This document shows, piece after piece, positions 13,618 through 32,769 of a DNA stretch of 64,000 nucleotides. Below the pieces are notes generated by a model. The model saw nothing but the letters and a program-made list of their open reading frames with translations. It ran no database searches and was not told the origin of the DNA. This DNA comes from an uncultured Dehalococcoidia bacterium. Its GTDB lineage: Bacteria > Chloroflexota > Dehalococcoidia > GIF9 > UBA5629. The stretch is from positions 17,292 through 81,291 of the forward strand of contig CAIMUM010000194.1 in the NCBI GenBank assembly GCA_903844685.1, in the 5' to 3' direction. Position numbers and translations under genes: made by a program. The first letter of the stretch is position 1. Each line of letters opens with the position of its first letter.

Positions 13618-13646
13618 TTGACAGGGCAGGATATTAAACCTAAAAT
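13618..13646 (+). promoter_or_regulatory. Sigma70-like promoter (TTGACA-17 nt-TAAAAT) for the SCP2-led operon
   Basis: Consensus -35 at 13618-13623, an exact 17-nt spacer and the -10 at 13641-13646 lie ~30 nt upstream of the SCP2 RBS and ATG. Confidence 0.5.
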
Positions 13647-13678: not shown

Positions 13679-14086
13679 ATGGCCGTATTTGCTACACAGG
13701 AATGGCTCGACGAGATTGCCAAGCTATTGAATGAAGATCCCGCTTATGCAGAGGGCGCCAAGGGCTGGGAAGGGGATTTCCTGTATATCATCGAACCTGA
13801 CGAGCTTCAACCGAACCCCAGCTACTATTATATGGACCTGTACCACGGGAAATGCCGCAAGGCAGTAGTGCTCAAGGACCCCTCTAAAGTGAAGGCTGAA
13901 TTTGAGCTGTCAGCTACTTACTCGGTCTGGAAAAAGATACTGACTGGTGAACTCGACGGCATGAAGGCCATGATAACGCGCAAGATGAAGTTCAAGGGCG
14001 CTATCGCCAAGGTGATGAAGGACACCAAGTCCCAACAGGCCTATGCCAAGGCCCTTGCCCCACTTAAGACAGAATACGTTAAATAA
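13679..14086 (+). CDS. SCP2 sterol-carrier domain protein
   Basis: 135 aa SCP2-fold protein (…ITRKMKFKGAIAKVMKD…) behind a GGGAGGT RBS. Confidence 0.7.
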   Translation: MAVFATQEWLDEIAKLLNEDPAYAEGAKGWEGDFLYIIEPDELQPNPSYYYMDLYHGKCRKAVVLKDPSKVKAEFELSATYSVWKKILTGELDGMKAMITRKMKFKGAIAKVMKDTKSQQAYAKALAPLKTEYVK

Positions 14087-14161
14087 CTATCCAAATGCAT
14101 CCCAGTGCTGTGCACCATAGTATGCCTGTCCGCACTGATAATATTTCAGGAGGTAGCTCAT

Positions 14162-15325
14162 ATGTGGTATTTCCGTAATCCATTGATCGTGTTCGGTGAT
14201 GACGCGCTGGAACACCTCAGGGAGATTAAGGGTAAGCGCGCCCTAATTGTGACCGACGCAGTACTGGTCAAACTGGGTTTTGTAGATAAAGTCGCTAGAG
14301 AACTGAAGCACGCCGGTATCGAGCATCGCGTTTTCTCCGAGGTGGAACCGGACCCATCCGTTGATACTGTCAGAAAGGGCGCACAGGTTGCGCTTGAATA
14401 TGAACCTGACTGGCTGATCGGACTGGGTGGCGGTTCGGCTATGGACGCGGCCAAGATGATCTGGATGCTATATGCGCAACCCGACACGGAACCGTACGCC
14501 ATCGTACCCTTCCAGGATTACGACGCGCGCAGTAAAGCCCGCATGATATGCATACCGACCACGGCGGGCACAGGCTCAGAGGTGACCTGGTTCATGGTGG
14601 TTACGGACACAGTCGAGAGAAGGAAGATAGCCGTGGGCACTCCTGAGGCCTTACCGGATATCGCGATATTGGATTTCCGCTTGGTGGGAGATATGCCGAA
14701 GGGCCTGGTGGCCGATACCGGCATGGACGCGCTGACCCACTGTGTTGAGGGATTTGGCTCGACCTGGCGTACGGATTTCACCAATGGCCCTGCATTGATG
14801 GCAATGAAGTTGATCTTCAAATACCTTAAGCGCTCATACGACGACGCTTCGGATAAGGAGGCCAGGGAGCACATGCTCAACGCCTCAGCGCTGGCCAGCA
14901 TGGCCTGGAGCAACGGCATGGCCGGACTGGCGCATAATATGGGCCACGCGCTGGGCGGCTTCTTCCATGTTACACATGGCAAATCCGTCGGACTCTACCT
15001 GCCTTACAACATGCAGTACCTGACCGAGGCCGGGGCCGAAGTCTTCGCTGAGGCCGCCCGGTTCATTGGTCTGAAAGGGAAGACCGATCTTGAACTAACC
15101 CGGGGGTTAGTCAGCGGAATAAAGGATATGGCCCGCCATCTGGGACAGCCGTCATCAGTAAAAGAGCTTAACATTGACAAAGCCGCCTATGAGAAGGCGC
15201 TGCCGGAGATGGTTGCTCGGGCCATCGGTGAGGCCTCCACCCCCACTGTCCTGCGCGTACCGGATGAGAAGGACATGGAGCGCATGTTCCTCTATGCTTA
15301 TGAGGGCAAAACTATAGACTTTTAA
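14162..15325 (+). CDS. Iron-containing alcohol dehydrogenase
   Basis: The Fe-ADH family is indicated by GGGSAMDAAK and the His-rich metal site (HCVEG, HNMGHALGG). The start was set at MWYFRN behind AGGAGGT. Confidence 0.85.
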   Translation: MWYFRNPLIVFGDDALEHLREIKGKRALIVTDAVLVKLGFVDKVARELKHAGIEHRVFSEVEPDPSVDTVRKGAQVALEYEPDWLIGLGGGSAMDAAKMIWMLYAQPDTEPYAIVPFQDYDARSKARMICIPTTAGTGSEVTWFMVVTDTVERRKIAVGTPEALPDIAILDFRLVGDMPKGLVADTGMDALTHCVEGFGSTWRTDFTNGPALMAMKLIFKYLKRSYDDASDKEAREHMLNASALASMAWSNGMAGLAHNMGHALGGFFHVTHGKSVGLYLPYNMQYLTEAGAEVFAEAARFIGLKGKTDLELTRGLVSGIKDMARHLGQPSSVKELNIDKAAYEKALPEMVARAIGEASTPTVLRVPDEKDMERMFLYAYEGKTIDF

Positions 15326-15371
15326 GAGCCATGGATTATCGTTAAATTTTACATTACTTGGAGGTATATAC

Positions 15372-16556
15372 GTGGATTTCAGATTAACGCCTGAACAGGA
15401 AAAGCGCAGACAGGAATATCACGCGGTGTGCAGCGAGTTGGCCCTCAAGGCACCGCACCCTATCCTGGGGGAGAAGGGGATTTTCGGCACTGAGCATGGG
15501 TGGAAGTATTTTCGCTATTGTGCTAAAGAGTTTGCCAAAAGAGGCTGGCTGTCGCTGAGTTGGCCGGCGGAGTACGGCGGCAGGGGCGACCGTATGGACC
15601 AGGTCCTGCTGGCTGAGGCCATGGGTTATAACGGTGTCCCCGGCATCGACCCCTTCGGAGTAGGCATGCTGGCTCCCACCCTGCTGGCAGTTGGCAGCGA
15701 AGAGTTGAAAAAGGAGTTCCTACCACCTATAGCCAGATCTGATGTGATGTGGTGCGAACTCTGGAGCGAACCCAATGCTGGATCCGATCTTGCAGCTCTG
15801 ACAGCAACAGCCATCCGTAAAGGCGACGAATATGTCATCAACGGGCAAAAAACCTGGAACACCAATGCCCACAACGCCGACTGGGGATTTGGCATCTTCA
15901 AGAGTGACCCGGAGGGGAAGAAACACAGGAACCTCAGCTTTCTTCTGATGGATATGAAGACGCCCGGTATAACCGTGCGCCCGCTGTATTATATGAACGG
16001 CGGCCACATCCTGAACGAGGTATACTTCGACGACGCGCATGTGCCGGCCAGGAATCTGGTTGGAAAAGAACATGGGGGATGGGCGGTGGTCAACGTTCTG
16101 GCGGGGTTTGAGAGGTCCAACATGGGAGCGGTCGCGGGTATGCGCCGTGCGTTGGAAGAGATCGTCCACTACTGCAACGAAACAATTGTGAACGGGCAGC
16201 TTCGGTCACGGGATCCCATTATTCGCAACCGCCTGGCGCAATTAGCCTGCGAGATCGAGGCTATGTCTACACTGGGTTACCGCATCGCCGACCAGCAGAA
16301 CAGGGATGAAATGGGATTGATGGATGCCTCAGCTATGAAAGTGTTCTCGACCGAATTGGAAGAGCGTTTCGCGGCGCTGGCAGTAGACATTTTCGGGCCC
16401 TCCGGCCAGATTACGGAAGGCAGGTGGGCTCCCATGGGAGGGCATTGGATCAATGCCCTCCAGGAGAGCTTTGTGGGCACAATTTCCGCCGGTACCAATG
16501 AGATTCAGCGGAACATTATAGCCTGGTACGGGCTCGGCCTGCCCAGGATGAAATAA
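15372..16556 (+). CDS. Acyl-CoA dehydrogenase (ACAD) family
   Basis: GTG start behind GGAGGT. The ACAD N/M/C domains and the C-terminal GTNEIQRNII motif are present. It is a paralog of 62800..63984. Confidence 0.85.
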   Translation: MDFRLTPEQEKRRQEYHAVCSELALKAPHPILGEKGIFGTEHGWKYFRYCAKEFAKRGWLSLSWPAEYGGRGDRMDQVLLAEAMGYNGVPGIDPFGVGMLAPTLLAVGSEELKKEFLPPIARSDVMWCELWSEPNAGSDLAALTATAIRKGDEYVINGQKTWNTNAHNADWGFGIFKSDPEGKKHRNLSFLLMDMKTPGITVRPLYYMNGGHILNEVYFDDAHVPARNLVGKEHGGWAVVNVLAGFERSNMGAVAGMRRALEEIVHYCNETIVNGQLRSRDPIIRNRLAQLACEIEAMSTLGYRIADQQNRDEMGLMDASAMKVFSTELEERFAALAVDIFGPSGQITEGRWAPMGGHWINALQESFVGTISAGTNEIQRNIIAWYGLGLPRMK

Positions 16557-16739
16557 TTGGCAAGGTTGAGTTTGACACGCGCATGAAATCGCTGTGATTG
16601 CTTTTCGCGGTAATGATAAGGTAAGATTCAGAGGCCCGTTAAAGAGAGAGGCCACAATACCTCTGGAGATCGAGGTTTGAGCTAAAGGCATAGTCAACAC
16701 AGTATACACAAAATATTTTGAGGAGGAGGACGACCCAAT

Positions 16740-17702
16740 ATGCAAAGGCCGGTTTCGGCTTACACAGACCGTGATGACGCGTTGCATCCTTATGCTAATC
16801 CCGCGTATTACGAGTGGTGGTATTTAGATGCAAGGTTTGATAACGGGTATTCATGCGTCCTGTCCTGGCACTGGCTTAACGAGTTTTTAAAGCCTCACAT
16901 ACCCACCGTACAAATCTTCATTTATACGCCGGAAGGCAAGAGGTATGTAGGTATGGACGGGATAGATCCTAAAGACTGCTCCGCGAGCCAGGAGTATTGC
17001 AATGTCAAGATGGGGAGCAGCTACCTGCGGCAAGAGGGCAAGGTTTACAATATGTCAATGCACAGCCGTAATATTGGTTGCGATCTTACGTTCCAGGGCA
17101 CTATACCAGGTTGGAAAATCGGTGACGGCAAAATTCCTATTAATGGTGGAGAAATGGTTCAAGGTTGGGTAATTCCCTGCCCCAGGGCAAGGGTGGAAGG
17201 TAAACTATTTATCAAGGATAAAGAAATTCAGGTCAAAGGAGATGGATATCACGACCATAACTGGGGAAACGCCGATCTGTACGACATTTTCCATGGCTGG
17301 TACTGGGGGAGGTTAAACGATCCGAAATATACGATTATTTTCTCCAACACCCGGGCTTTAAACGGCCAGGTCCTGCCCTATCTCTACGTTGCCGATAATA
17401 AATCGACCCTGTTATCAACCGATAAATACGATTTTATCGTTGAGAAGGAGGAACCTGATACAGCTACCGGGCAGACGTATGCCAAAGCCCTTACACTAAA
17501 ATACAACGGCGACGATATGAAATTAAGGTGCAGGCTTGATACCAAGAGCGTGGTCGAACACACTCCACTCCCCAAGGTTAATGAATACAACATGTTCAAC
17601 TGGAGATTCCTGGCAGATTACGAAGGTGAGATCACGTTCGACGGTAATACCGATAAGATTAGAGGCGAAACAATTCACGAGAGGTTCCTTTTCAGGGGTT
17701 AA
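16740..17702 (+). CDS. Hypothetical protein, CrtC/AttH-like (carotenoid 1,2-hydratase family) lipocalin-fold hydratase candidate
   Basis: The N-terminal ...PAYYEWWYLDARFDNG... is reminiscent of the EWWY hallmark of the CrtC/AttH family. No cofactor motifs are present. The gene sits inside the beta-oxidation operon. Confidence 0.4.
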   Translation: MQRPVSAYTDRDDALHPYANPAYYEWWYLDARFDNGYSCVLSWHWLNEFLKPHIPTVQIFIYTPEGKRYVGMDGIDPKDCSASQEYCNVKMGSSYLRQEGKVYNMSMHSRNIGCDLTFQGTIPGWKIGDGKIPINGGEMVQGWVIPCPRARVEGKLFIKDKEIQVKGDGYHDHNWGNADLYDIFHGWYWGRLNDPKYTIIFSNTRALNGQVLPYLYVADNKSTLLSTDKYDFIVEKEEPDTATGQTYAKALTLKYNGDDMKLRCRLDTKSVVEHTPLPKVNEYNMFNWRFLADYEGEITFDGNTDKIRGETIHERFLFRG

Positions 17703-17789
17703 TTCACTGAATCTTCGTAGATCAAATTGAGTTTGCGGATTAATATTACGGTGTCCTGGAAAAATAATTAACGGAGGGTTTATACGGAT

Positions 17790-18935
17790 ATGCCTGACAG
17801 AGTTGGAATAGTGGCGGCCGCAATGACGAAATTTGAGGCGGCCAAACCCTGGCAACATCTCGCTGAACTGGTGCTGGAGGTGACGGACAAGGTTGTCGAA
17901 GCTGCCGGCATCTCACTTCAAAAAGATGTGGAAAGCATAGTCAGCTGTTCACAGGATCACTGGGACGGCAGGACGATTTCCTCGATGCCCATACCTGATG
18001 TTACCTGCGGCCACCTGAAGGATGAGTCAAAAGTAGCTGACGATGGCGCTTATGCCGTTCTCTATGGCGCCATGCATATTCTTTCGGGCGATCATAAATT
18101 AGTACTGGTTGTCAGTCACTGCGCTGAATCGCACACCGACGGCACTATTATTGAGAACTGGTCGATCGATCATATTTTCACGCGTATGCTTGGCCTTGAT
18201 TACACTTTGGCAGCAGCCATGCAGGCCAGAAGATATATGGACAAATACGGTATTACCCCCGAACAATTTGCCAAAGTGGTGGTTAAAAACAAGGGTAATG
18301 CCAAAAAGAATCCATACGCGCAGGATTCGGCAACATTGAGCGTAATTGACGTTCTGAAGTCGCAGATGCTGGCGGATCCTATTACGGTGATGGACAGGAA
18401 ACCTGTATCCGACGGCGCCTGTGCCATGATACTTGCCACGGAGGAGATCGCTAAAAAACTAACCGACAAACCGGTGTGGATAAAGGGAGCCGGCAACTGT
18501 TATGATCCACACTTTCTGGGGGACCGCGAACTGGCCGATTGCGACGCCCTAGAAACTGCATCCAAGAAAGCGTATAAGATGGCGGGCATCAAGAACCCGG
18601 TTAAAGAGATAGATGTTGTGGAACTATCTGAATATTATTCCTACCAGGAGCTTTTATGGACAGAGGGCCTTGGTTTATGCAAACGGGGAGAAGGCGGGAA
18701 GTTCATCGATAGCGGAAAGACACAATTAAATGGTGATATACCGGTTAACCCGTCGGGTGGCTTGCTATCTGGTATTCCCATTACCGTAGCAGGGATGTCA
18801 AGGGTTGCGGAGGCTGTCTGGCAATTGCAGGGCCGGTCGGGAGAGAGACAGATCCCTGGCGCTAAGCTGGCAGTAGCCCACGGCTGCGGTGGAATCTGCG
18901 GCCAGATGCATTGCGTCCTGGTATTGGGAAATTAG
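17790..18935 (+). CDS. SCP-x/Ltp-type thiolase-fold protein (catalytic His replaced: ...SGIPITVAG...)
   Basis: The thiolase superfamily fold resembles the paralogs at 20099, 21350 and 50052. The GHP motif is absent. A DUF35 pair follows. Confidence 0.7.
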   Translation: MPDRVGIVAAAMTKFEAAKPWQHLAELVLEVTDKVVEAAGISLQKDVESIVSCSQDHWDGRTISSMPIPDVTCGHLKDESKVADDGAYAVLYGAMHILSGDHKLVLVVSHCAESHTDGTIIENWSIDHIFTRMLGLDYTLAAAMQARRYMDKYGITPEQFAKVVVKNKGNAKKNPYAQDSATLSVIDVLKSQMLADPITVMDRKPVSDGACAMILATEEIAKKLTDKPVWIKGAGNCYDPHFLGDRELADCDALETASKKAYKMAGIKNPVKEIDVVELSEYYSYQELLWTEGLGLCKRGEGGKFIDSGKTQLNGDIPVNPSGGLLSGIPITVAGMSRVAEAVWQLQGRSGERQIPGAKLAVAHGCGGICGQMHCVLVLGN

Positions 18936-18968
18936 TAGAACTACGGATTAATTGGAGGTAATAGATAT

Positions 18969-19457
18969 ATGAAAGCTAAGCCGCAATTAGAACTGATTTA
19001 CCTGGATATGACCCTCAAAATGCCATTCAAGTGGAACACCGGTGAGCCACTGGGAGAATTTTTCAGGGAACTGAAGGCAAACGAAAAGATCTATGCAAAT
19101 CAATGCCCCACCTGCGGACGTAATTACTGCCCCCCGGCAAATATCTGTACCAGGGATCATTCGAGATGCAACGAAAAAGATAAATGGGTAGCCGTGGGGC
19201 CCAAGGGCACACTCTTAACCTTCTTCATCTGCGAGCAGTCATTTTTAATCCCAACCACAGGCGAGATGCTGGAGGTACCCTTTAGCGTGGGACTCGTTAT
19301 GCTTGACGGCGCGCCGGTTGTGCTTCAGCACTGTTTGCAGGAGACCGATGTGGAGAAAATTAAACCCGGCATGCGGGTAGAAGCCGTTTTCAAACCTAAA
19401 GAAGAGCGCAAGGGCAATATTTTCGACATTATACACTTCAAGACTATCAAGGAATAA
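18969..19457 (+). CDS. DUF35 protein (rubredoxin-like Zn ribbon + OB fold), thiolase/aldolase partner subunit
   Basis: A CPTCGRNYCPPANIC Zn-ribbon is followed by an OB-fold region. It is the ChsH2-DUF35 / BbsA type. Confidence 0.75.
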   Translation: MKAKPQLELIYLDMTLKMPFKWNTGEPLGEFFRELKANEKIYANQCPTCGRNYCPPANICTRDHSRCNEKDKWVAVGPKGTLLTFFICEQSFLIPTTGEMLEVPFSVGLVMLDGAPVVLQHCLQETDVEKIKPGMRVEAVFKPKEERKGNIFDIIHFKTIKE

Positions 19458-19481
19458 TAACTTTAAGAAGAGAGGCTAATA

Positions 19482-19952
19482 ATGGCTAACGAAGTTGTAA
19501 AGAAAGAACCTATGTTCACCGAAGGCTATGTGATCATGCCTTATAAGTACTCTGTGGGTACACTGGCAAGCAAGTTTTTCATCGAGATCAGAGACCATAA
19601 GAAAATAAACGGCGTGAAATGCCCTAAATGCAATATAGTAATAGTCCCTCCCCGGTCTGTATGCATAAAGTGTTTCAACAAAATCGAGGATCTGGTTGAA
19701 TTGAGCGGGAAAGGTACCCTGGTAACTTATACAGTGGCTCACTACGATTCGGCTGTTCAGGCGATGAAGCCACCGTATGCAATCGGAGTGATCAAGCTGG
19801 ACGGCGCTGATACAGCGATAACGCATTTTATCGGCGAAGTCGATTTCAAGGAGCTTAAGGCCGGCATGAAGCTGGAAGCTGTATTCAATGAGACCAGGAA
19901 TGCCAATATCCTTGATATCAAGTATTTCAAGCCGGTTAAAAATAAAGGATAA
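19482..19952 (+). CDS. DUF35 protein (Zn ribbon + OB fold), second copy
   Basis: The Zn ribbon is CPKCNIVIVPPRSVCIKC. Its architecture and size match the preceding gene. Confidence 0.75.
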   Translation: MANEVVKKEPMFTEGYVIMPYKYSVGTLASKFFIEIRDHKKINGVKCPKCNIVIVPPRSVCIKCFNKIEDLVELSGKGTLVTYTVAHYDSAVQAMKPPYAIGVIKLDGADTAITHFIGEVDFKELKAGMKLEAVFNETRNANILDIKYFKPVKNKG

Positions 19953-20098
19953 AAGCATTAAATTATCTCAGCTTTCAAATGAACCGGGATCATAATCATT
20001 AGGCATTTGCCCGGTGACCAAGAAATGCAATTGAGATGATTATACAGATTTGATCCGCTTTATATTACCCCTATTCTTTAATTGTTGAGAGGTGAATT

Positions 20099-21265
20099 AT
20101 GACACAACGTGTAGCTATAGTCGGCATCGGCCAGACCAACCATTCGGGAAGGCGTCCTTATCATAACGACGGTGAGGTAATCTACGATGCTATCAGCGCA
20201 GCCCTTGCAGATGCCCAGTTATCTATAAAAGACATTGATAACGTAATTATAGGTGATATGGAACTCTTCGAAGGCCATAGTCTGAATGACGCCATGTTGC
20301 TGGATTACACGGGCGCTGAGGGCAGATCCGGCTTCAAGATGAACACGGGTGGAACCGTGGGCTCTATGAATGTGATCTCAGGCTGGTATAACGTAGCATC
20401 CGAATTCAGCGATACTACCCTGGTTATCGGTTGGGAAAAGCACGACGAAGGACCGACCACTTCAGCTATAACCACTATCTGGGACCCCGCTATAAACCGG
20501 CCATTTGAAGTCGGCGCCATTTCCGGTCTGGCCATGATCTCCAATGCATACATGACGAGGAGCGGCTGTCCCCTCGAAGTCGGGGCGATTGTCCGTGCTC
20601 AGGCCTCGGACAATGCAGCGAGAAATCCCAAGGCTCATTTGAGGGAAAGGTATACTGTCCAGGACGTTATGAGCGCAAGAATGGTGCTATATCCGCTGAA
20701 TTTGCTGATGATCTGTCCCACAAGCCTGGGTGCATGCGCCCTGGTATTGGCCGGCGAGAAAAAAGCCAGGAAAATAAATAAAAAACCGGTATGGATCAGG
20801 GACCATGCTACTGCACACCAGGTAACCCGCGGCATGGATTTCATGGCCGAAGCGGGGAAAATAGACACGTCAATGACTGTAACGGGAAGGAAAATTTTCC
20901 AACGTAACCATATTACCAAGCCGATGGAAGAGATACAGGTCTTCGAGATGTACGATCCGTGCGCTTTTTGCCAGCCTGCCTGGCTGGAAGAATTTGGCCT
21001 CTGCGAGGCTGGTCAGGGTTGGCGCCTGATTGAAAAAGGTGTTACGGCCAGAGAAGGATCGTTTCCGGTTTCTCCCTCCGGCGGTACATTGTGTACTAAC
21101 GCTATAGGCGATACAGCCACCGTGCGTGTGGCCGAGGCGGCTTTACAATTGCGGGGCGATGCCGGAGAACACCAGGTGACCAGGGAAGTGAAAATGGCTC
21201 TGGCCAGCGGTTACGGTGGTATGTACTGGACCGACCTGCTGCTGCTCAGCAATACGCTGGATTAG
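20099..21265 (+). CDS. SCP-x-type thiolase-fold protein lacking all thiolase catalytic residues (aldolase/scaffold candidate)
   Basis: It aligns with the bona fide thiolase at 50052. NFCATGS becomes NTGGTVGS, so the nucleophilic Cys is absent. CFGHPIGASG becomes CTNAIGDTAT, so the His is absent. The C-terminal Cys is also absent. Confidence 0.75.
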   Translation: MTQRVAIVGIGQTNHSGRRPYHNDGEVIYDAISAALADAQLSIKDIDNVIIGDMELFEGHSLNDAMLLDYTGAEGRSGFKMNTGGTVGSMNVISGWYNVASEFSDTTLVIGWEKHDEGPTTSAITTIWDPAINRPFEVGAISGLAMISNAYMTRSGCPLEVGAIVRAQASDNAARNPKAHLRERYTVQDVMSARMVLYPLNLLMICPTSLGACALVLAGEKKARKINKKPVWIRDHATAHQVTRGMDFMAEAGKIDTSMTVTGRKIFQRNHITKPMEEIQVFEMYDPCAFCQPAWLEEFGLCEAGQGWRLIEKGVTAREGSFPVSPSGGTLCTNAIGDTATVRVAEAALQLRGDAGEHQVTREVKMALASGYGGMYWTDLLLLSNTLD

Positions 21266-21349
21266 CCTGCGGGGCTGGTTAGATTTTGGATGGCAGGAAT
21301 CTCATTAAAAGGGATTGGCAATACTAAAAATAGATTTTAGGAGGCCGGT

Positions 21350-22519
21350 ATGTCACATAGAGTTGCTATTACAGGAATAGGGCAGACACGTCACTCAGGC
21401 CGCCGGCCTTACCATAACGACGGTGAGATGATCCATGAAGCGGTGAGCCTGGCCCTGGCCGATGCCGATATCAGCATTAAGGACATTGACACTGTCATCA
21501 TCGGCAATATGGACTTGTTCGAAGGACATTATCTTAACGATGCTATGCTAGCGGACTATTCCGGTTCCATAGGTAAATCAGGCTTTAAAATGAACACGGG
21601 CGGCACGGTAGGCACCATGGAAGTCATTACAGCCTGGTACAATATCGCTTCAGGACAAAGCGATACAGTTCTGGTAATCGGCTGGGAGAAGCACGACGAA
21701 GGCCCGGTTACCTCGGCCATCACCACAATTTACGAACCTGCCTACACGAGGTGGTTTTCCGTGGGTGCGCTATCAGGGTTGGCACTATTATCGGACGACT
21801 ATTTACGGCGTGCAAACTGTCCGATGGAAATCGGCGGGATTGTCCGGTCATACATGTCGGAAAATGCCTCCCGCAATCCCAATGCCCATTTAAGGGAAAA
21901 GTATACAGTTCAGGACGTAATGAACGCCCGCATGGTACTCTACCCCCTCACTCTGCTCATGATCTGTCCAACCAGCCTGGGCGCCTGTGCCATGGTGCTG
22001 GCCAAAGAAAGCAAGGCCAAAAAGATGACTAAAAAGCCGGTCTGGATAAAAGATCACGTCACAGTCCATGCCGAGGAGGGTGGCGGGCTCTTTGATGCCC
22101 TGAGCGGAGGACCCCGCCGCACTACAGAGACGGAAGCAGGCAAGACTATATTGAAGCGGAACCACATCACCAAGCCCCTGGAAGAAATACAGCTCTTCGA
22201 AATGTACGATCCCTGCCCATTCTTCCACCCCTTCTTCCTTGAGGATTTCCAGCTCTGTCCTGAGGGTGAAGCGTGGAAACTCATTGAGAAGGGGTTAACG
22301 AGCAGGGAGGGCTCATTCCCTATCTCTCCATCTGGTGGGGTCATGTGCACCAATGCCATCGGCGATTCCGGCACCTTGCGTGTGGCCGAAGCTGCCCTTC
22401 AACTGCGCGAAGACGCCGGCGAACATCAGGTGACCCGCAAGGTAACGCAGGCCCTGGCCAGCGGGTTCGGCGGCTCGAACTGGACCGATCTCTTCCTGCT
22501 CACCAATTCGCTGGACTGA
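21350..22519 (+). CDS. SCP-x-type thiolase-fold protein lacking catalytic residues, tandem paralog of 20099..21265
   Basis: The N-terminal ~130 aa are roughly 70 % identical to the previous gene. The same Cys and His substitutions are present. Confidence 0.75.
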   Translation: MSHRVAITGIGQTRHSGRRPYHNDGEMIHEAVSLALADADISIKDIDTVIIGNMDLFEGHYLNDAMLADYSGSIGKSGFKMNTGGTVGTMEVITAWYNIASGQSDTVLVIGWEKHDEGPVTSAITTIYEPAYTRWFSVGALSGLALLSDDYLRRANCPMEIGGIVRSYMSENASRNPNAHLREKYTVQDVMNARMVLYPLTLLMICPTSLGACAMVLAKESKAKKMTKKPVWIKDHVTVHAEEGGGLFDALSGGPRRTTETEAGKTILKRNHITKPLEEIQLFEMYDPCPFFHPFFLEDFQLCPEGEAWKLIEKGLTSREGSFPISPSGGVMCTNAIGDSGTLRVAEAALQLREDAGEHQVTRKVTQALASGFGGSNWTDLFLLTNSLD

Positions 22520-22585
22520 TCGCAGCTATTATCCTAATTTTCCGCAGTCAATCAGTGGTTGACTGTGTATGTCGTAAGCGCCGGC

Positions 22586-22855
22586 CTATTCAGCCTTGAT
22601 AACAGCAGCGATGCCCTGTCCGCCGCCGACACACATGGAAGCATTGCCATACTTGGCGCCTTTCTCTTTAAGGATCCTGGCCAGCGTGCCGACAATCCTG
22701 ACACCTGTAACGCCAAGCGGGTGGCCGATAGCCAGACCGCTGCCGTGGATATTGATTTTCTCCACGGGGATATTAAATTCTTTCATAGCGCACAAAGGCA
22801 CAAGGCAAAGTGCCCGGTAAGGAGCATCGTGAATGGCATTATGGTCACACTGCCA
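22586..22855 (-). pseudogene. Remnant of a thiolase C-terminus (~75-90 aa)
   Basis: ...NIHGSGLAIGHPLGVTGVRIVGTLARILKEKGAKYGNASMCVGGGQGIAAVIKAE is a canonical thiolase C-terminus with GHP and CxGGGQG motifs. An in-frame stop lies 18 codons upstream. It sits directly downstream of the intact thiolase gene. Confidence 0.6.
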
Positions 22856-22950
22856 TCACGCTTTCCTATCCCAGGCACATGCGTTACAGTTTCATTGCTA
22901 TACCGCGTGCTGTATGCACTTCGGCGGGTTTGGTTTTATTTCGCTCAAGG

Positions 22951-24159
22951 CTATCTTTGCAGGTTCTCTATGATCGCGCAGATTCCAAGTCCGCCGCCGA
23001 CACAGGTGCTGAACATACCATATTTCCCGCCGGTGCGGATCAATTGACGCATAGTGAACATGCCGATCCTGGCACCGGAAGCGCCGTTGGGATGTCCGTA
23101 GGCAATAGCGCCGCCCAGCGGGTTCCATTTTTTGCGGTCTACTTTTTCACCTGTTTGCTTTTCAAGTTCCTTTATAACCGCCAGTTGTTGCACAGCAAAG
23201 GCCTCATTGCATTCCATGTGATCGAAATCAGCAATCTTCAGTCCAGACCGTTTCATGGCTATAGGTATAGCGTAGGCAGGGCCAATACCCATGATCTTCG
23301 GGTCGCAGCCGTAATCTGCACCCGTAATCCATCTGGCCATCGGTTTGTACCCCAGTTCCTTGGCTTTGTCAGCGCTCATCATCAGGACGAAAGATGCACC
23401 ATCATTCATACCGGAGGAATTACCCGCGGTTACCGTACCGTCCTTTTTAAACGTGGGCGGAAGCTTGGCCAAACCTTCCAAGGTGGTGTCAGGACGAGGA
23501 TGCTCATCTTTATTGAATACAATATCGGGGGCCTTTTTGCCGCCCGGGATGATCACCGGGACTATCTCATCTTTGAAATAATCGTTGTCCATGGCCATTT
23601 TTGCTCTCATCTGGCTCTGGTAAGCGAACTCGTCGGAAGCTTCCCGCGGAATGCTATACATAACCTGCAGGTTCTCGGCCGTTGTTCCCATACCAACGTT
23701 ATCTTCCGGATTCGGGGACAAAGTAGGCATGACGGGCATTGGGGGGATTTGTTTATATGGCGCCGTAGTCGTCGGGAACTTGTGGTAAAAATTGCTGTGG
23801 GAATCCATGCCGCCTGCTATGATAATATCCGCCTGGTTGGCAAGGATTTTCCATGCAGCATGGTTGATAGTGTCAATAGATGAACCGCACTGCATCTCGA
23901 GAAAGTGCGATGATGTTTCTATGGGTAGCCCGGCCGCCAGAGTAACCCAGCGCCCCATGTTCAGGGTGTTTACACTACCAAATGCAGACCCGGCCATAAC
24001 ACAGTCCACCTTGCCACGCTCTGTAATCTTTGTTTTCTCAATCAGGCCTTTCATAACAATGGCCCCCAACTGATTAGGCAAGATATCGCGGATCGTACCG
24101 CCCATTTTCCCAAAAGCTGACCTCATACCGTCAACGAAAACTACTTCTCTCTGTGCCAT
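22951..24159 (-). CDS. Acetyl-CoA C-acyltransferase (canonical degradative/biosynthetic thiolase)
   Basis: The Cys nucleophile is in EMQCGSS. YGHPNGASG and CVGGGLG motifs are present. The start was set at MAQREV behind GGAGG. Confidence 0.85.
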   Translation of the reverse strand: MAQREVVFVDGMRSAFGKMGGTIRDILPNQLGAIVMKGLIEKTKITERGKVDCVMAGSAFGSVNTLNMGRWVTLAAGLPIETSSHFLEMQCGSSIDTINHAAWKILANQADIIIAGGMDSHSNFYHKFPTTTAPYKQIPPMPVMPTLSPNPEDNVGMGTTAENLQVMYSIPREASDEFAYQSQMRAKMAMDNDYFKDEIVPVIIPGGKKAPDIVFNKDEHPRPDTTLEGLAKLPPTFKKDGTVTAGNSSGMNDGASFVLMMSADKAKELGYKPMARWITGADYGCDPKIMGIGPAYAIPIAMKRSGLKIADFDHMECNEAFAVQQLAVIKELEKQTGEKVDRKKWNPLGGAIAYGHPNGASGARIGMFTMRQLIRTGGKYGMFSTCVGGGLGICAIIENLQR

Positions 24160-24569
24160 TTGTTCCTCCAATAATATAAAACTTATTTGGCGTTTTGATG
24201 TCTGCCATAGTGCGACATCCGCACAATAATTGTATATGATTACGCCCCAAAATCACCAGCGAACGTGTGGCGCCTCTGTCCCCGGCGCTCCTTATATAAT
24301 TAAGCTTGGATTTTACATTATTAGCATGGAAATCACAATTTTCGAAGTCGAAATCCAGCTTTACTAATCATTATCCCTGGGGCGGATAGCACGGCTAAGT
24401 CTAGCTCCGATCTAAGCAGGCGCCCGGACAGCCTGGGTAGCCAGGGTGACAAGGTGGAAGTATTGGCTCTTCAAGGATCAGGAGCGCGCTGAAGTGGCTA
24501 TAGAGAGGATTTGGGTAATAGCTCCGGATAAGGGAGGGTCCAGCAGGCCAGGAGGGCCTGGAGGGGTCA

Positions 24570-24763: not shown

Positions 24764-25957
24764 ATGCCGGGTTTGATGCTGGAGGGTGTCAAGATCATTG
24801 ATTTCACCACTACCGTCGCGGGACCTGCCTGCTCCCAATTCCTATCACAGTTAGGGGCCGAGGTAATCAAAATCGAGTCGCCAGTCAAGATGGATGATGC
24901 CCGCTATTATCCACCGTACAAAGGTTCTTTCTCTATTTCGTTTGCCGCTGCTAACATAGGAAAAAGATGTGTGACCATCGATCTTAAGAAGCTGGAAGGT
25001 GTGGCACTGTTCAAAGAAATGGCCAAAGCCTGTGATGTCTTCTTGGAGAATTATACACCTGGCACCGTCAAGCGACTGGGTATTGACTACGATGCACTGA
25101 AGGACCTCAACCCCAGGCTCATCATGTGCTCTATCTCTGCCTACGGTCAGACCGGGCCGCTTTCCAGCCTGCCCGGTTACGACGCAACCATCCAGGCTAT
25201 GACTGGACTGATGAGCGTTACCGGCTACCCGGACCGTCCGCCTCTCCGGTCGGGGACATTGGTCGTTGATGTCAGTACGGCATTCTGCGCGGCCCTCTCC
25301 ATCTGCGCAGCGCTCTATGCACGGCAGATATCAGGAATTGGGACTCACCTCGATATCGCTATGTACGATGTAGGTATTAATCTGCTCGAGTCCAAATTTG
25401 TGGATTATGCCAATACGGGCAACGTTCCCACCCGCACGGGCAACCGCTTCCCCTTCATCTCACCCTTTGACACCTACCAGACGAAAGACTCCTACGTAAT
25501 GATTATCTGTGCCGGCGACGGTCCTTTCATCGACCTGTGCAATGGTATGGGAATGCCCGACCTGCCCACAGACGAGCGTTTCAAGGACATCTTCACCCGC
25601 AATGCCCACGAACCAGAACTAAAAAGAATAATTGAAGACTGGTCCACTCAATATACTACGGCAGAGGTAGTTGAGAAGCTCATAGCTGCCGGGGCCCCTG
25701 TAGCCGCTGTACATGATATCAAGCAGGCCATAGACCACCCGCATACACAGGCACGCGGTATGCTCAATGCTGTTGAACAGCCAGGGGTTGGCAACCTGGT
25801 GTTGATGGGCCCGCCGGTAAAGGCCTCCAATTACCAGGTCGGCAAGCCCGGACACACCCATAGTCCAGGGGAGGATAATATATGGCTACTCAAAGAAATT
25901 CTGGGCAAGAGCGAAGCTGAGATACAGAAGATCAGCGAGTCAAAGGTGATGGGTTAA
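24764..25957 (+). CDS. Family III CoA-transferase (CaiB/BaiF; alpha-methylacyl-CoA racemase / succinyl-CoA:acid CoA-transferase type)
   Basis: The CaiB/BaiF fold is present with the conserved Asp region. The RBS is GGAGG. Confidence 0.8.
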   Translation: MPGLMLEGVKIIDFTTTVAGPACSQFLSQLGAEVIKIESPVKMDDARYYPPYKGSFSISFAAANIGKRCVTIDLKKLEGVALFKEMAKACDVFLENYTPGTVKRLGIDYDALKDLNPRLIMCSISAYGQTGPLSSLPGYDATIQAMTGLMSVTGYPDRPPLRSGTLVVDVSTAFCAALSICAALYARQISGIGTHLDIAMYDVGINLLESKFVDYANTGNVPTRTGNRFPFISPFDTYQTKDSYVMIICAGDGPFIDLCNGMGMPDLPTDERFKDIFTRNAHEPELKRIIEDWSTQYTTAEVVEKLIAAGAPVAAVHDIKQAIDHPHTQARGMLNAVEQPGVGNLVLMGPPVKASNYQVGKPGHTHSPGEDNIWLLKEILGKSEAEIQKISESKVMG

Positions 25958-27049: not shown

Positions 27050-28390
27050 TTAAGAATAATCGGCCTTAATGTGATCAGCGCAGATCATAGCAGAATTGGC
27101 CGCCGCGTTCATGCCTACACCCCTGCCTGTATAGCAGTCGCCCGCAAAATACAATCCCTTCATGCCGGGCATAGCTACTGGCATACGATAATTTCCGGTC
27201 AATCCGGGTGACCTGCCCAGCCCATCAATACCTACATAGTGGCCGTCCACTTTCCAGACTACGTTTTCTTCTACATCAGGGAACATCTGCTTAACAGTCT
27301 CCCAGAACTTGCCCAATGTATCTTTGCGGAACGCCTCATCCCGGGCCTGTTGTGGTGTACAACAAGCGCCGATAAAAGCAATCATATGCCCAGGCGGTGC
27401 AATTGTTTCATCAAAGTTAGTATGCCCGAGAATCTGCAGTGGCAAGCCAACCCCTGGTATCCTCCAGGCCGAAAGATAAACCGGTTCAGTAAACAGCGGC
27501 TTCCTTATTCCCATGGTAAAGCCCATGGATGCGCTTGTCTCATCTTTCAGTCGTACTAATCTGGAGTACCATTCACGCTGCAACGGGTCATCTGCAACCT
27601 CGATTATGCCAACTAATTGCCAGATGGGAATAGCAATAACCACGACGTTAGCATGATAAGATTCAGTTTCTGTAAATAATTCGGTTGTACCATTTTTATT
27701 TACAACCACTTTTATGACCGGTGCACCATATTTTATTTCGCAACCTTTTTGTATAGCGGCTTTGGCCATTGCTCCTGTCATCACTCCGATGCCACCTACT
27801 GGCATGCGGATATTGCCGAAACCGCCGTACCTCGCCCCGAATTTCATGCCCTCACGATAAATGGACACGAATTCTCCTGCTGAGATTATCTCAGCCCGTG
27901 TCAGCGTAGTTTGCACCATGCCGATAGTCTTCAGGTATTCCGCCACAGGTTCGGATTTTACCCGCTGTGAGATAAATTCAGCCAGAGAGGTTTTATCCAG
28001 CACATCTATCTCGGCATCAGTCATAGGTACAAAGCTGTCTTCCAACTCAGCTAATTGCTTGACCTCCGCATCCGTTAAGTTGAAATACTGCCCTGCGTCC
28101 TTCCACTTATCACCATCGAAGATACCCATTCCCTGCATCGGGCGTGTCCAGGCTATGTCCACTCCAATCTTTTTCAGGAGGTCCGCGCAAGCTGATTTAT
28201 CGCCGTTATCCACGCAATGCGTCCCAGTATCAATTCTCCACCCGCCGGGCATCTCCTTGGTTTTAGCCCTGCCACCTGGTGTCCGCGTTTTTTCCAGCAA
28301 CAGTATCCTCATCCCACGCCCTTGTAGCAATCCTGCCACACCTAACCCGGCAATTCCCGCACCAATTACTATTGCATCATAAGCATTCAT
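27050..28390 (-). CDS. FAD-dependent oxidoreductase, CrtI/CrtD/amine-oxidase (phytoene desaturase-like) family
   Basis: The N-terminal dinucleotide fold DAIVIGAGIAGL...LLLEK is followed by GGR. Length 446 aa. Confidence 0.7.
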   Translation of the reverse strand: MNAYDAIVIGAGIAGLGVAGLLQGRGMRILLLEKTRTPGGRAKTKEMPGGWRIDTGTHCVDNGDKSACADLLKKIGVDIAWTRPMQGMGIFDGDKWKDAGQYFNLTDAEVKQLAELEDSFVPMTDAEIDVLDKTSLAEFISQRVKSEPVAEYLKTIGMVQTTLTRAEIISAGEFVSIYREGMKFGARYGGFGNIRMPVGGIGVMTGAMAKAAIQKGCEIKYGAPVIKVVVNKNGTTELFTETESYHANVVVIAIPIWQLVGIIEVADDPLQREWYSRLVRLKDETSASMGFTMGIRKPLFTEPVYLSAWRIPGVGLPLQILGHTNFDETIAPPGHMIAFIGACCTPQQARDEAFRKDTLGKFWETVKQMFPDVEENVVWKVDGHYVGIDGLGRSPGLTGNYRMPVAMPGMKGLYFAGDCYTGRGVGMNAAANSAMICADHIKADYS

Positions 28391-30385: not shown

Positions 30386-31519
30386 CTAAAGACCAATCTG
30401 CCGGGCAACTATGTCTCTATGGAAGTCTGCATCTCCATAGGCAAGCTCACCAGCCTTGGCACGGCGGAAGTAGAGATGCATGTCATGATCCATGGTAAAG
30501 CCGATCGCGCCAAAAATCTGGTGGGCAAGTACGGCCACACGCTTGAATGCCTCGCTGGTCCAGGCTTTAGCTATGGATACCTCCTTGTCAGCGGGTAATC
30601 CCTCACTGACCGCCCAGGCTGCTTTATAGGTTATAAACCGTGAGCCATCCACATCCGTAACCATATTGGCGCAGTAGTGCTGGATTGCCTGGAAACTGCC
30701 GATGGGACGGTTAAACTGCACCCTTTCCTTGGCATAATTTACCGCCATATCCAGCGAGGCCTGAGCGCCTCCTACCATCTCCGCACACTTGGCCACGGCT
30801 GCCTTCTTTAACAAGGATTGGATTACACTCCAGCCTTTATCCAGATTACCTATAATATGCGCTTTGGGAACACGGACGTTTTCAAGTATAACCTCGCACA
30901 ACTTATCGCGTGCCAGCGTCTTCAGCAGGGTGTATTTAACGCCGGCACTTTTTGCATCGACAATGAAAATAGTGATCCCATCATCCGGATTTGCACTCTT
31001 TTTGGTCCTTGCGACAACTAAAATATAATCGGCAACATTGGCATCGGGCACGAAAAGCTTGGTACCATTCAACACATAGCCATCCCCTTTGGCTTTCGCA
31101 GTGGTATTTATCGATGCGGCATCATAGGTGCCATCCAGTTCCGTAAGCGCGACGGTTATTATCAGCTCCCCCGTGCATATCTTACCCAGATATTCCTTTT
31201 TCTGCTCCTCATTGCCGGCTTCAAGGAGAGTATAACCGGCTAAAACAACTGTTGAAAAGAAAGGACCTGGTACAATGTTATAGCCCATCTCATCGAGGAG
31301 CACCGTCAAATCAAGAAAACTACCCCCGTTGCCCCCGTATTTCTCCGGGAAGGATAGCCCCATCCAGCCCAACTGCGCCATCTTATTCCAAAGGTCCCTG
31401 GAATAACCCGTGTCGCTCTCATCCAGTTCCCGGACCAGCTTCTTGGGGCACTCCTTAGCCAGGAACTCTTGCGCCGATTTCTTTAACATCTCCTGCTCTT
31501 CAGTTAAACCCAGATCCAT
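30386..31519 (-). CDS. Acyl-CoA dehydrogenase family protein (short, 377 aa; possible subunit of heteromeric ACAD)
   Basis: ACAD fold. It starts MDLGLTEEQ and is a paralog of 52886..54019. Confidence 0.8.
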   Translation of the reverse strand: MDLGLTEEQEMLKKSAQEFLAKECPKKLVRELDESDTGYSRDLWNKMAQLGWMGLSFPEKYGGNGGSFLDLTVLLDEMGYNIVPGPFFSTVVLAGYTLLEAGNEEQKKEYLGKICTGELIITVALTELDGTYDAASINTTAKAKGDGYVLNGTKLFVPDANVADYILVVARTKKSANPDDGITIFIVDAKSAGVKYTLLKTLARDKLCEVILENVRVPKAHIIGNLDKGWSVIQSLLKKAAVAKCAEMVGGAQASLDMAVNYAKERVQFNRPIGSFQAIQHYCANMVTDVDGSRFITYKAAWAVSEGLPADKEVSIAKAWTSEAFKRVAVLAHQIFGAIGFTMDHDMHLYFRRAKAGELAYGDADFHRDIVARQIGL

Positions 31520-31572
31520 TTTAACCTCCCTGATTTGTGTATTTAAAAATACCGCTAATGCGTGTGAATAAT

Positions 31573-32769
31573 CTATTTGCGAGGAAGCCCTAACCCTCTC
31601 TGCGCAATGATATTACGCTGGATCTCGGACGTGCCGGCGCCGATAACTGCCGAGATAGAATCAAGGTATCCTACGCTGTACTGCCCACGCATGGGCGCAT
31701 ACTTGGAATCATGTTCCAGCTGTCCATAAATTCCTAATATCTCGGTCCCAACACTGGCCAGCTTCCTGCTTAATTGAGTTGCAAAAAGCTTTAGTACAGA
31801 AGCTTCAATATTGGGCATCTGGTTATTATCCATCATCCAGGCAGTCTTAAAGAAGAAGTTATAGGCAACCTCGATATCAATTGCCAGGTCAGCCAGCTTC
31901 CGGCGCACTGACGGGTTGGCTGACAGCGGTTCCCCGTTCCGGGTAGTCCCCTTGACGTATTTAACCAGTTCATCGAATTGGCGGCGGAAACCGCCAATGG
32001 CAATAGCAAGACGCTCGTAATCCAATGCGACCATGAGATAAAGAAAGCCAAGATTCTTCTCGCCAACTATATTTTTCTTGGGCACACGGACATTGTCGAA
32101 AAACACCTCGTTGAAGGAATGAAAGCCAACAATATTTATTAATGGACGTATCGTTATGCCCGGTGTTTTATTATCTACGATAAATAATGTCGTGCCTTTA
32201 TGAGATGGCACTTTCATGTCCGTCCTGGCCACCATCCAGGCATAATCGGCTATATGCGCTCCACTGCTCCATATCTTTTGCCCGTTAACAATCAGGTCAT
32301 CCCCGTCTTCTACCGCAGTCGTCTGGATAGCCGCCAGGTCTGACCCGGCATTGGGCTCACTGTAGGCCAGCCAGAACCTGAGATTGCCCTTGATAATCCT
32401 GGGTATCCACTCCTTCTTTTGCTCTTCGCTGCCAAAGCGCATGATGGTAGGCGCGGCAATCAATGTGGAGATGTCCGTTCCCGGCGCCCTGTGATAGCTC
32501 AGGCGCTCGGCGAAAATCGCCTGCTCTATGAACGAGTGTCCGCCACCGCCGAGCTCCTTCGGCCAGGCCATAGTCAGCCAGCCCTCCTCACCCATCCTTT
32601 CACGAAAACGGTCTATAGCGGGATCACGCTCTTCGAACTCCAGTATTGCCCCGTATGCCCCCGGCCAGTAGAGGCACCTGTCGGTATACCCGGGAGGCAT
32701 CGCTGACAGGACAAATTGCTCTGCTTTTTGTTGAAAGGCCTTTTCAGTTTCACTTAATTGGAAATCCAT
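31573..32769 (-). CDS. Acyl-CoA dehydrogenase family protein
   Basis: ACAD fold with the C-terminal GTSEIQRNIIAQRGLGLPRK motif. Confidence 0.8.
   Translation of the reverse strand: MDFQLSETEKAFQQKAEQFVLSAMPPGYTDRCLYWPGAYGAILEFEERDPAIDRFRERMGEEGWLTMAWPKELGGGGHSFIEQAIFAERLSYHRAPGTDISTLIAAPTIMRFGSEEQKKEWIPRIIKGNLRFWLAYSEPNAGSDLAAIQTTAVEDGDDLIVNGQKIWSSGAHIADYAWMVARTDMKVPSHKGTTLFIVDNKTPGITIRPLINIVGFHSFNEVFFDNVRVPKKNIVGEKNLGFLYLMVALDYERLAIAIGGFRRQFDELVKYVKGTTRNGEPLSANPSVRRKLADLAIDIEVAYNFFFKTAWMMDNNQMPNIEASVLKLFATQLSRKLASVGTEILGIYGQLEHDSKYAPMRGQYSVGYLDSISAVIGAGTSEIQRNIIAQRGLGLPRK

Follow-up and report, generated by a model that had tools for sequence, protein, structure and literature searches.

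Introduction

Thiolase-fold aldolases cut side chains at positions where a tertiary or otherwise hindered 3-hydroxyl group blocks beta-oxidation, and the characterised examples are limited to two homodimeric enzymes, Ltp2 and Sal. Here we analyse a 64,000-nt stretch of DNA from an uncultured Dehalococcoidia bacterium (hereafter the window), in which three genes for thiolase-fold proteins, T1, T2 and T3, lie together with two genes for stand-alone DUF35 proteins, D1 and D2. Our comparisons suggest that this block encodes a heteromeric retro-aldolase built on the thiolase fold, not a thiolase, a reading that we regard as moderately probable.

Ltp2, a steroid C3 side-chain aldolase, works with the DUF35 domain of ChsH2 (6OK1), and Sal, a bile-acid C5 side-chain aldolase, with that of Shy (9MYR). 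Their catalytic tyrosines, Tyr294 of TcLtp2 (motif YDHF) and Tyr302 of CtSal (YDCY), align to the HDCF motif of thiolases, as does the motif YDCF of TbSLP, and mutating the catalytic tyrosine abolishes aldolase activity (PMC12329534). In SCP2-type thiolases the cysteine of this HDCF loop is the second catalytic cysteine, as stated in the same paper, which cites Harijan et al. In the archaeal thiolase/3-hydroxy-3-methylglutaryl-CoA (HMG-CoA) synthase complex and in ChsH1-ChsH2-Ltp2, DUF35 proteins serve as molecular staples that hold enzymes together.

Other aldolase systems of this kind are Atf1/Thl (MSMEG_6561)-ChsH4 of Mycolicibacterium and Ltp3-Ltp4. The latter is described as a heteromeric aldol-lyase that actinobacteria require to degrade sterol side chains branched at C24 (Wilbrink et al. 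2012, cited in PMC6678751, PMC6593523 and PMC8708139), and the published gene order is Rv3520c, Rv3521, ltp4 (Rv3522), ltp3 (Rv3523). A previous, sequence-only reading of the window had named Ltp2-ChsH2 as the one described precedent for such a locus. Sal-Shy, Atf1-ChsH4 and Ltp3-Ltp4 exist as well, and the comparisons below point to Ltp3-Ltp4/Rv3521, needed to degrade the side chains of plant sterols, and not to Ltp2, as the nearest.

Loss of the thiolase catalytic residues

T1 (381 aa, positions 17790-18935, plus strand), T2 (388 aa, 20099-21265, plus strand) and its paralogue T3 (389 aa, 21350-22519, plus strand) match Pfam Thiolase_C_1 (PF22691; 7.8e-36, 9.9e-26 and 7.3e-23, respectively) and, more weakly, Thiolase_N, which assigns them to the SCP2 thiolase subtype. 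Their active-site positions were compared using MAFFT with the window's own thiolase (50052-51245, minus strand), which carries Cys88, H294-D-C296-F and G-H344-P and whose best solved relative is an archaeal acetoacetyl-CoA thiolase (8e-61). A second comparison used HMMER alignments to the solved thiolases 7yvy, 7pxp_C (BbsB) and 6esq, and also to 4yzo.

At the position of the nucleophilic cysteine, T2 and T3 have Gly85, within NTGGTVGS in T2 (nt 20342-20365) and NTGGTVGT in T3 (nt 21593-21616). T1 has Val or Ala there, within SKVADDGAY (nt 18027-18053), and its SKVADD region offers neither Cys nor Ser. The HDCF loop reads Y285-D-P-C in T2 (nt 20951-20962), with Pro287 at the cysteine site, Y286-D-P-C in T3 (nt 22205-22216) and S-E-Y-Y in T1 (nt 18624-18641). 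The histidine of the GHP motif is replaced by Asn334 in T2 and Asn335 in T3, each within CTNAIG (nt 21092-21109 and 22346-22363), and by Ile in T1 (S-GIP, nt 18765-18785). All three proteins have the fold of a thiolytic SCP2/archaeal-type enzyme, and none retains the nucleophilic Cys, the His of GHP or the Cys of HDCF.

The Pfam, MAFFT and HMMER results bear out the sequence-only reading in its central observation, thiolase folds devoid of the catalytic triad beside two stand-alone DUF35 genes. It had also described the loss of Cys, His and a C-terminal Cys from T2 and T3. The first two losses are as described, to Gly and Asn, and the relevant second cysteine is that of HDCF rather than the C-terminal one, both being absent. 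For T1 it had claimed the loss of at least the His, which is correct and understates the case, since the nucleophile is also gone.

In the T2 family these losses are strictly maintained. Among 112 homologues of T2 with at least 45% identity, Gly, Tyr and Asn each occur in 112 of 112 and Pro in 111. The residue following YDP is Ser in 57, Cys in 28 and Ala in 13, so that this Cys is not kept, and the family alignment contains no invariant or near-invariant Cys anywhere. A catalytic triad shifted in register, which would have explained the losses away, is therefore not found. The ratio of nonsynonymous to synonymous substitution rates (dN/dS) against orthologues in the nearest metagenome-assembled genome (MAG) is 0.06 for T2 and 0.10 for T1, which indicates purifying selection. 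Because the replacements are invariant in the 112 homologues and dN/dS is this low, the losses do not reflect decay. An AlphaFold2 (AF2) model of T2, with a mean predicted local distance difference test score (pLDDT) of 87.6, has the thiolase fold and superposes on 7yvy, 6esq and 6hsp with template modelling (TM) scores of 0.85-0.88. With no nucleophile at or near the site in T1, T2 or T3 and with conserved replacements, there is strong support for the view, already put forward in the sequence-only reading, that these proteins would be incapable of thiolysis.

Two kinds of thiolase-fold subunit

T2 and T3 are 69.7% identical, and T1 shares 28-29% identity with either. The three copies noted previously are therefore not equivalent, and appear to comprise one partner-type subunit and two catalytic-type paralogues. 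In a neighbour-joining tree (41 sequences, 50 bootstraps), T2/T3-type proteins and members of PRK08313, the best NCBIfam match of T2, form one clade with 100% bootstrap support. T1-type proteins form another, also at 100%, which is sister to PRK07937 proteins at 74%. T1 and PRK07937 proteins have in common a three-residue deletion just after the former nucleophile position, while T2, T3 and PRK08313 proteins share an Asn-Pro/Ala-Ile-Gly motif. Thr83-x-Gly85, Tyr285-x-Pro, Asn334, Ser327 and Arg343 recur in Dehalococcoidia, actinobacterial and distant T2-type proteins. T2 and T3 of the window themselves fall in sub-clades whose members are solitary genes in other MAGs.

The invariant Tyr of T2 and T3 occupies the first position of the HDCF loop, which, through the motifs published in PMC12329534, is the site of the catalytic Tyr in Ltp2 and Sal; T1, with SEYY, differs. 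In the T1 family (n = 29) four active-site positions vary (A/E/D; S/H; Y/N/T; V/N/I/A) and the rest of the protein is well conserved. As these positions vary, T1 is probably a non-catalytic, degenerate partner subunit with an Ltp4-like role. T2 is likely to be the catalytic, Ltp3-like retro-aldolase subunit and T3 an alternative catalytic subunit.

Relationship to the actinobacterial Ltp3-Ltp4 system

Actinobacterial relatives of T2 (34-37% identity) are encoded by the last gene of a three-gene operon, found on Streptomyces clavuligerus and Tsukamurella plasmids and on a Rhodococcus contig. The first gene encodes a protein of 309-347 aa with two DUF35 OB domains. The second encodes a PRK07937 member of 349-359 aa (550-593 bits against a cutoff of 419 for the Streptomyces and Tsukamurella members scanned), and the third a PRK08313 member of 388-390 aa (713-734 bits, cutoff 514). 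In Rhodococcus the order is an F420-type luciferase-like oxidoreductase on the minus strand, the DUF35 protein, and proteins of 349 and 389 aa. This reproduces Rv3520c-Rv3521-ltp4-ltp3, and by synteny PRK08313 would correspond to Ltp3 and PRK07937 to Ltp4. The Tsukamurella operon adjoins genes for an AMP-ligase and a crotonase, in the manner of fadD19 and echA19. A search for homologues of the Tsukamurella PRK08313 protein returned generic names ("thiolase domain-containing protein") and no Ltp3 label.

The module of the window and Ltp3-Ltp4 both combine two unlike, adjacent genes for Cys-less thiolase folds with two DUF35 domains. T2 and T3 share with the PRK08313 subunit the well-supported clade and the signature Gly, Tyr-x-Pro, Asn; T1 shares with the PRK07937 subunit the sister position and the deletion; and an acyl-CoA synthetase and an enoyl-CoA hydratase are encoded nearby. 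At the level of the proteins compared, the module evidently shares its ancestry with the actinobacterial PRK07937/PRK08313/double-DUF35 operon. The differences are nonetheless considerable. Identity is low (34-37% for T2, 28% for T1), with scores under both NCBIfam cutoffs. Here the DUF35 proteins are encoded by two separate genes, both with a zinc ribbon, whereas the N-terminal half of the actinobacterial fusion has no ribbon. The window also has the extra catalytic-type paralogue T3 and a different gene order. The substrate is probably not a C24-branched sterol, because the host belongs to the Dehalococcoidia and family scans of the window's proteins revealed no sterol-ring catabolic genes. 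Literature searches combining Dehalococcoidia with DUF35, or thiolase-like with DUF35 and anaerobic, returned nothing specific.

Two DUF35 proteins and a recurrent four-gene unit

The two DUF35 genes had been placed between the tandem thiolase-fold pair; they actually lie between T1 and T2. D1 (162 aa, 18969-19457, plus strand) matches OB_ChsH2_C (4.1e-13) and zf-ChsH2 (6.3e-4), and its orthologues conserve an atypical ribbon, CxxC-x4-C-x5-C-x3-H, with four Cys and one His (nt 19104-19160). D2 (156 aa, 19482-19952, plus strand; OB_ChsH2_C 4.1e-16, zf-ChsH2 4.6e-5) has the canonical ribbon CxxC-x10-CxxC (nt 19620-19673). It matches SSO2064 (3irb), an archaeal DUF35 protein (6esq_E), ChsH2-DUF35 (6ok1_B) and Shy-DUF35 (9myr_B) in the Protein Data Bank (PDB). 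D1 and D2 represent separate orthologous groups; orthologues of D1 score about 280 bits with D1 and about 72 with D2. A one-to-one pairing of D1 and D2 with the halves of the actinobacterial fusion was considered and rejected, as both halves match both proteins about equally.

The unit of a T1-type gene, a T2-type gene and two distinct DUF35 orthogroups recurs in more than 30 loci, in Dehalococcoidia MAGs, MAGs of other phyla and Cupriavidus necator. Open reading frames (ORFs) were classified against the window's proteins in 44 related loci from GTDB species genomes. The order T1-T2-D1-D2 is seen in more than 20 Dehalococcoidia/Chloroflexota loci, often with three divergent acyl-CoA dehydrogenase (ACAD) genes upstream, orthologues of which lie at 30386-34113 in the window. 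The order D-T1-T2-D is seen in Thermodesulfobacteriota, Proteobacteria and unclassified MAGs. On a megaplasmid of C. necator, the order is crotonase, acyl-CoA synthetase, T1, T2, D1, D2, acyl-CoA synthetase, SCP2-type thiolase, crotonase and short-chain dehydrogenase/reductase (SDR), and the unit adjoins a LuxR/MalT-type regulator gene. The window's order, T1-D1-D2-T2-T3, is a variant, and in the nearest MAG a different T2-type gene comes after the T1 orthologue.

Several Dehalococcoidia/Chloroflexota MAGs have five or six loci each with T2-type genes, among them one LacPavin MAG (loci L003, L010, L011, L024 and L033) and the SPRUCE 159 MAG (L014, L022, L027, L034 and L040). These loci include complete T1-T2-D1-D2 modules as well as solitary genes of the T2/T3 type beside solute-binding proteins or acyl-CoA synthetases. 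The catalytic subunits T2 and T3 and their solitary paralogues might be interchangeable on one T1/D1/D2 scaffold.

In a global protein library, a T2-family profile retrieved 973 cluster representatives among 1.84 billion at E<=1e-30. The nucleophile position of the 119 full-length top representatives is Gly in 85 and Cys in only 15. The signature G-Y-[P/A]-N prevails in the roughly 25 closest, and other combinations at the catalytic positions include GQPN, GSFN, GCFN, GHAH and more. Cys-less folds of the SCP2 type are thus numerous in metagenomes, which makes their bare occurrence in the window less surprising. The top representatives related to T2 constitute a large unexplored diversity of such folds.

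Comparison with other thiolase-fold enzymes

Ltp2 resembles T2 and T3 in having no nucleophilic Cys, a DUF35 partner gene and the loop Tyr, and ranks 9th to 16th among the PDB sequence matches, as a much weaker match (6OK1; E = 6.7e-14). In contrast to the arrangement proposed here, Ltp2 forms homodimers, and the DUF35 domain belongs to the preceding hydratase. The sequence-only reading had suggested checking whether the catalytic tyrosines of Ltp2 are conserved: one of the two is kept in T2 and T3, at the Tyr294 site, and the Tyr344 site is Asn, an equivalence to Asn334 that we base on matching numbering and on Gln352 of Sal.

Sal and TbSLP share with T2 and T3 the Gly at the nucleophile position and the Tyr-Asp start of the loop. 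Sal also has an amide residue in place of the GHP His (Gln in Sal, Asn in T2 and T3) and a DUF35 partner. Shy-DUF35 has a Cys3His1 ribbon, which is reported to shape the substrate cleft; the D1 ribbon, with four Cys and a His, is alike in its conserved His. Sal differs in being a homodimer, in having its DUF35 partner fused to a MaoC hydratase, and in its essential Cys304 (YDC), where the T2 clade has Pro. Atf1, as described, is encoded with a stand-alone DUF35 protein and with a reductase for the aldehyde that it releases; the Fe-dependent alcohol dehydrogenase of the window may be likened to this reductase by description, not by sequence. Atf1-ChsH4 has a single aldolase subunit and a single DUF35 protein.

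Cys-bearing, DUF35-stapled thiolase complexes, including the archaeal and Phl complexes, share the SCP2-type fold (TM 0.8-0.88) and use DUF35 as a staple, and the archaeal and Phl complexes also combine two unlike subunits of the thiolase superfamily. These complexes use a nucleophilic Cys, which T1, T2 and T3 do not have. The best PDB sequence match of T2 is ST0096 of Sulfolobus tokodaii (4YZO; 6.5e-32), which also has neither a nucleophilic Cys (NTSGSGG) nor an HDCF Cys (HDMA). Unlike T2 and T3, it keeps the HDxx His and the GHP His, and hence does not carry the Tyr/Asn signature.

Proposed mechanism and alternative explanations

Going by gene adjacency and conserved co-occurrence, we propose a D1-T1-T2-D2 heterotetramer. 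Its core would be a dimer of T1 with T2, or instead with T3, joined at the interface usual for thiolases, and D1 and D2 would each hold one of the outer faces, in the way known for DUF35 on Ltp2, Sal and BbsB. T2 or T3 would provide the active site, in which Tyr285 would deprotonate the 3-hydroxyl of a 3-hydroxyacyl-CoA. The C2-C3 bond would then break without an acyl-enzyme intermediate, releasing an aldehyde or ketone and an acyl-CoA enolate, which Asn334 and backbone amides could stabilise until it is protonated. T1 may shape the pocket for a bulky or branched substrate. Such a substrate would be made by the acyl-CoA synthetase, acyl-CoA dehydrogenase and hydratase encoded nearby, and the Fe-dependent alcohol dehydrogenase of the operon could process the carbonyl product. 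An aldolase role for T2 and T3 is supported by the correspondence of their Tyr with the catalytic Tyr of Ltp2 and Sal, by their clade with PRK08313 and by the syntenic identification of PRK08313 with Ltp3. Genes for the surrounding steps flank the unit: in C. necator and Tsukamurella they encode acyl-CoA synthetases and enoyl-CoA hydratases, and in Dehalococcoidia ACADs. The solved structural neighbours of the T2 model, too, are all thiolase folds with a DUF35 partner. Of the two options in the sequence-only reading, a C-C lyase/aldolase or non-catalytic scaffolds, the former appears to apply to T2 and T3 and the latter would fit T1 only.

Several observations weigh against this proposal. A second catalytic residue is missing from T2 and T3, which have Pro for Cys304 of Sal and Asn for Tyr344 of Ltp2. 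With both replaced, the mechanism outlined above is incomplete and the active site would be a third variant. Aldolases and thiolases cannot be told apart by fold, because the structural neighbours just mentioned all score alike (TM 0.8-0.88). PRK08313 scores T2 at 306 bits and T3 at 304 bits, against a cutoff of 514, and T1 reaches 157 bits with PRK07937 (cutoff 419) and has its best match in PRK06066. PRK08313 and PRK07937, moreover, are presumed to be Ltp3 and Ltp4 from synteny and gene sizes, not from alignment to Rv3523 and Rv3522. The sterol literature defines the role of Ltp3-Ltp4 by knockouts, and the literature searched contained no assay or structure for the T2 clade or for Ltp3-Ltp4. 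The operon encodes no hot-dog or crotonase hydratase. The pairing of subunits is uncertain because the canonical T2 gene is not beside T1 in the window, and T1, being well conserved overall, may have a role of its own.

As a rival reading, the complex could form an enolate non-covalently and use it for a reaction other than retro-aldol cleavage: decarboxylation of a carboxylated or malonyl-type acyl-CoA, aldol- or Claisen-type condensation in the synthetic direction, with acetyl-CoA joined to a ketone or aldehyde, or isomerisation. We consider this unlikely, though the strongest competitor. The only measured activity of TbSLP, which carries the same Tyr motif, is weak malonyl-CoA decarboxylation, whereas CtSal is devoid of decarboxylase activity and the authors of that work make the case for SLPs being aldolases (PMC12329534). 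T2 and T3 lack the proton donors that are usual in Ltp2 and Sal, and their Asn at the GHP His site might still be able to polarise a thioester. The proposed route for sterol C24 branches has a carboxylation before the cleavage; family scans of the window's proteins, however, found no carboxylase gene, and the neighbours (acyl-CoA synthetases, ACADs, hydratases and a thiolase) are catabolic.

It is less probable still that T1, T2 and T3 are all dead and serve as scaffolds or substrate carriers, organising real enzymes such as the true thiolase (22951-24171, minus strand), the ACADs or a hydratase through the DUF35 proteins. DUF35 staples have such a place in the archaeal thiolase/HMG-CoA synthase and ChsH1-ChsH2-Ltp2 complexes, PhlA was formerly held to be an inactive thiolase-family partner, and the active-site positions of T1 are variable. 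Those of T2 and T3, in contrast, hold invariant polar residues across a clade of several phyla, the Tyr is essential for catalysis in homologous aldolases (PMC12329534), and ltp3 and ltp4 knockouts are reported to lose a specific cleavage step. That these are genuine thiolases with a displaced or unconventional nucleophile seems highly improbable. T2 and T3 do have a Cys one residue past the HDCF Cys position, and T1 has Cys residues near its C-terminus, but the YDPC Cys is replaced in most homologues, the T2 family has no Cys conserved elsewhere, the nucleophile position is Gly throughout and the GHP His is lost. A heteromeric retro-aldolase remains the reading we prefer.

Genomic context

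The thiolase-fold and DUF35 ORFs were recovered at the positions given by the sequence-only reading. They belong to an apparent operon of nine plus-strand genes (13679-22519) with intergenic gaps of 18-183 nt and a promoter-like site scoring 11/12 at 13618-13646, just 5' of the first gene. The order is an SCP2 carrier (13679-14086), an Fe-dependent alcohol dehydrogenase (14105-15325) and an acyl-CoA dehydrogenase (15372-16556), all three identified by Pfam/NCBIfam matches, a CrtC-like protein (16740-17702), T1, D1, D2, T2 and T3. An ENA contig has the identical gene order and a JGI contig contains part of the block at 99.4% identity, so the arrangement is no assembly accident. The closest genomes are uncultured Dehalococcoidales/Dehalococcoidia MAGs, with a T2 protein identity of 93%. 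Three long ORFs, one antisense to D2 (19476-19958, minus strand) and two antisense to the true thiolase at 22951-24171 (22559-23047 and 22810-23883, plus strand), have no family matches of their own and overlap well-supported genes, and are therefore probably not genes.

The locus also encodes PimC/PimD-like ACADs of the heteromeric type, an SDR (best NCBIfam match PRK07791), a phytoene-desaturase-family flavoprotein and a YfdE/SUGCT-like CoA-transferase. This context, with the SCP2 carrier, would suit a bulky, branched or dicarboxylic acyl-CoA substrate. The CoA-transferase, a family-III enzyme (24764-25957), was considered as an alpha-methylacyl-CoA racemase and rejected, being closest to YfdE and SUGCT-type transferases. 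The flavoprotein, of the phytoene-desaturase/amine-oxidase family (27050-28390, minus strand), has weak matches to HpnE, CrtI and CrtD. Limonene dehydrogenase belongs to the same family, and the sterol delta-24 desaturase of Sterolibacterium has been reported to resemble it. The sequence-only reading had placed the block in what appeared to be an anaerobe's catabolic operon. Catabolic neighbours are indeed seen, but the module also occurs in aerobes, namely the cultured Cupriavidus and actinobacteria.

The CrtC-like protein directly upstream of T1 has a weak Pfam CrtC_N match (7.9e-5) and no match in the PDB by sequence. Its AF2 model (pLDDT 95.6) has the AttH double-barrel fold and matches, all at Foldseek probability 1.0, AttH (2ich), kievitone hydratase (7a0q/7a0t), 25-phosphosteroid lyase (9g4c/9g2i/9fzn) and fungal Diels-Alderases. 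25-Phosphosteroid lyase is a recently solved enzyme of anaerobic cholesterol degradation. Together with kievitone hydratase, the Diels-Alderases and carotenoid 1,2-hydratase, it acts at isoprenoid alkene or tertiary-alcohol positions. The protein is cytoplasmic; its family has the invariants EWWY.D and YHD.NW, and among the homologues examined is known only from uncultured Chloroflexota and Deltaproteobacteria; its gene adjoins T-type genes in 8 of the 44 related loci. By its modelled fold, the protein is possibly a hydratase or lyase feeding the module.

Elsewhere in the window, a second acyl-CoA cluster (48474-55327, minus strand) encodes two ACADs, three MaoC/hot-dog hydratase subunits and the true archaeal/SCP2-type thiolase (50052-51245). 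It also includes an archaeal-type HMG-CoA synthase (51280-52722, minus strand; PRK04262, 223 bits against a cutoff of 244) with a C-terminally fused DUF35 zinc-ribbon/OB domain. The cluster recalls the archaeal thiolase/HMGCS/DUF35 complex, here with a staple that is part of the synthase. A RuBisCO large-subunit-like protein (42600-43913, minus strand) is encoded close to a class-III aminotransferase (40983-42449), a TetR regulator and an FGGY sugar kinase (44995-46530). The region 42600-46530 possibly represents a RuBisCO-like-protein pathway rather than carbon fixation. A uroporphyrinogen decarboxylase (URO-D)-like methyltransferase adjoins a B12-binding corrinoid protein at 3018-4998 (minus strand), a pair typical of anaerobic methyl-transfer or demethylation systems, and a flavoprotein resembling old yellow enzyme/2,4-dienoyl-CoA reductase is encoded at 992-3007.

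Implications

The locus connects a large, mostly Cys-less metagenomic clade to the Ltp3-Ltp4 system. It defines Gly, Tyr-x-Pro and Asn as their common signature and points to an architecture of four defined subunits. Cupriavidus necator (N-1/C39) offers a tractable host with the same module. As a tentative extension, which we consider rather doubtful, T1-T2-D1-D2 may represent a class of heterotetrameric C-C lyases that is widespread and has gone unrecognised, and whose active site would be of a third kind, based on Tyr and Asn and having neither the Cys of Sal nor the second Tyr of Ltp2. In anaerobic Dehalococcoidia, with at least five to six loci per MAG, sometimes coupled to an enzyme of the CrtC/25-phosphosteroid-lyase fold, this class would lift, with no need for oxygen, the block that branched carbons (tertiary 3-hydroxyacyl-CoAs) impose on beta-oxidation. 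If so, sediment Dehalococcoidia could reach isoprenoid-, steroid- or hopanoid-like and alicyclic organic matter.

If confirmed, a heteromeric thiolase-fold retro-aldolase would represent a new catalytic solution in the thiolase superfamily and a source of new biocatalysts that form or break C-C bonds. It would also account for part of the expanded acyl-CoA metabolism of sediment Dehalococcoidia.

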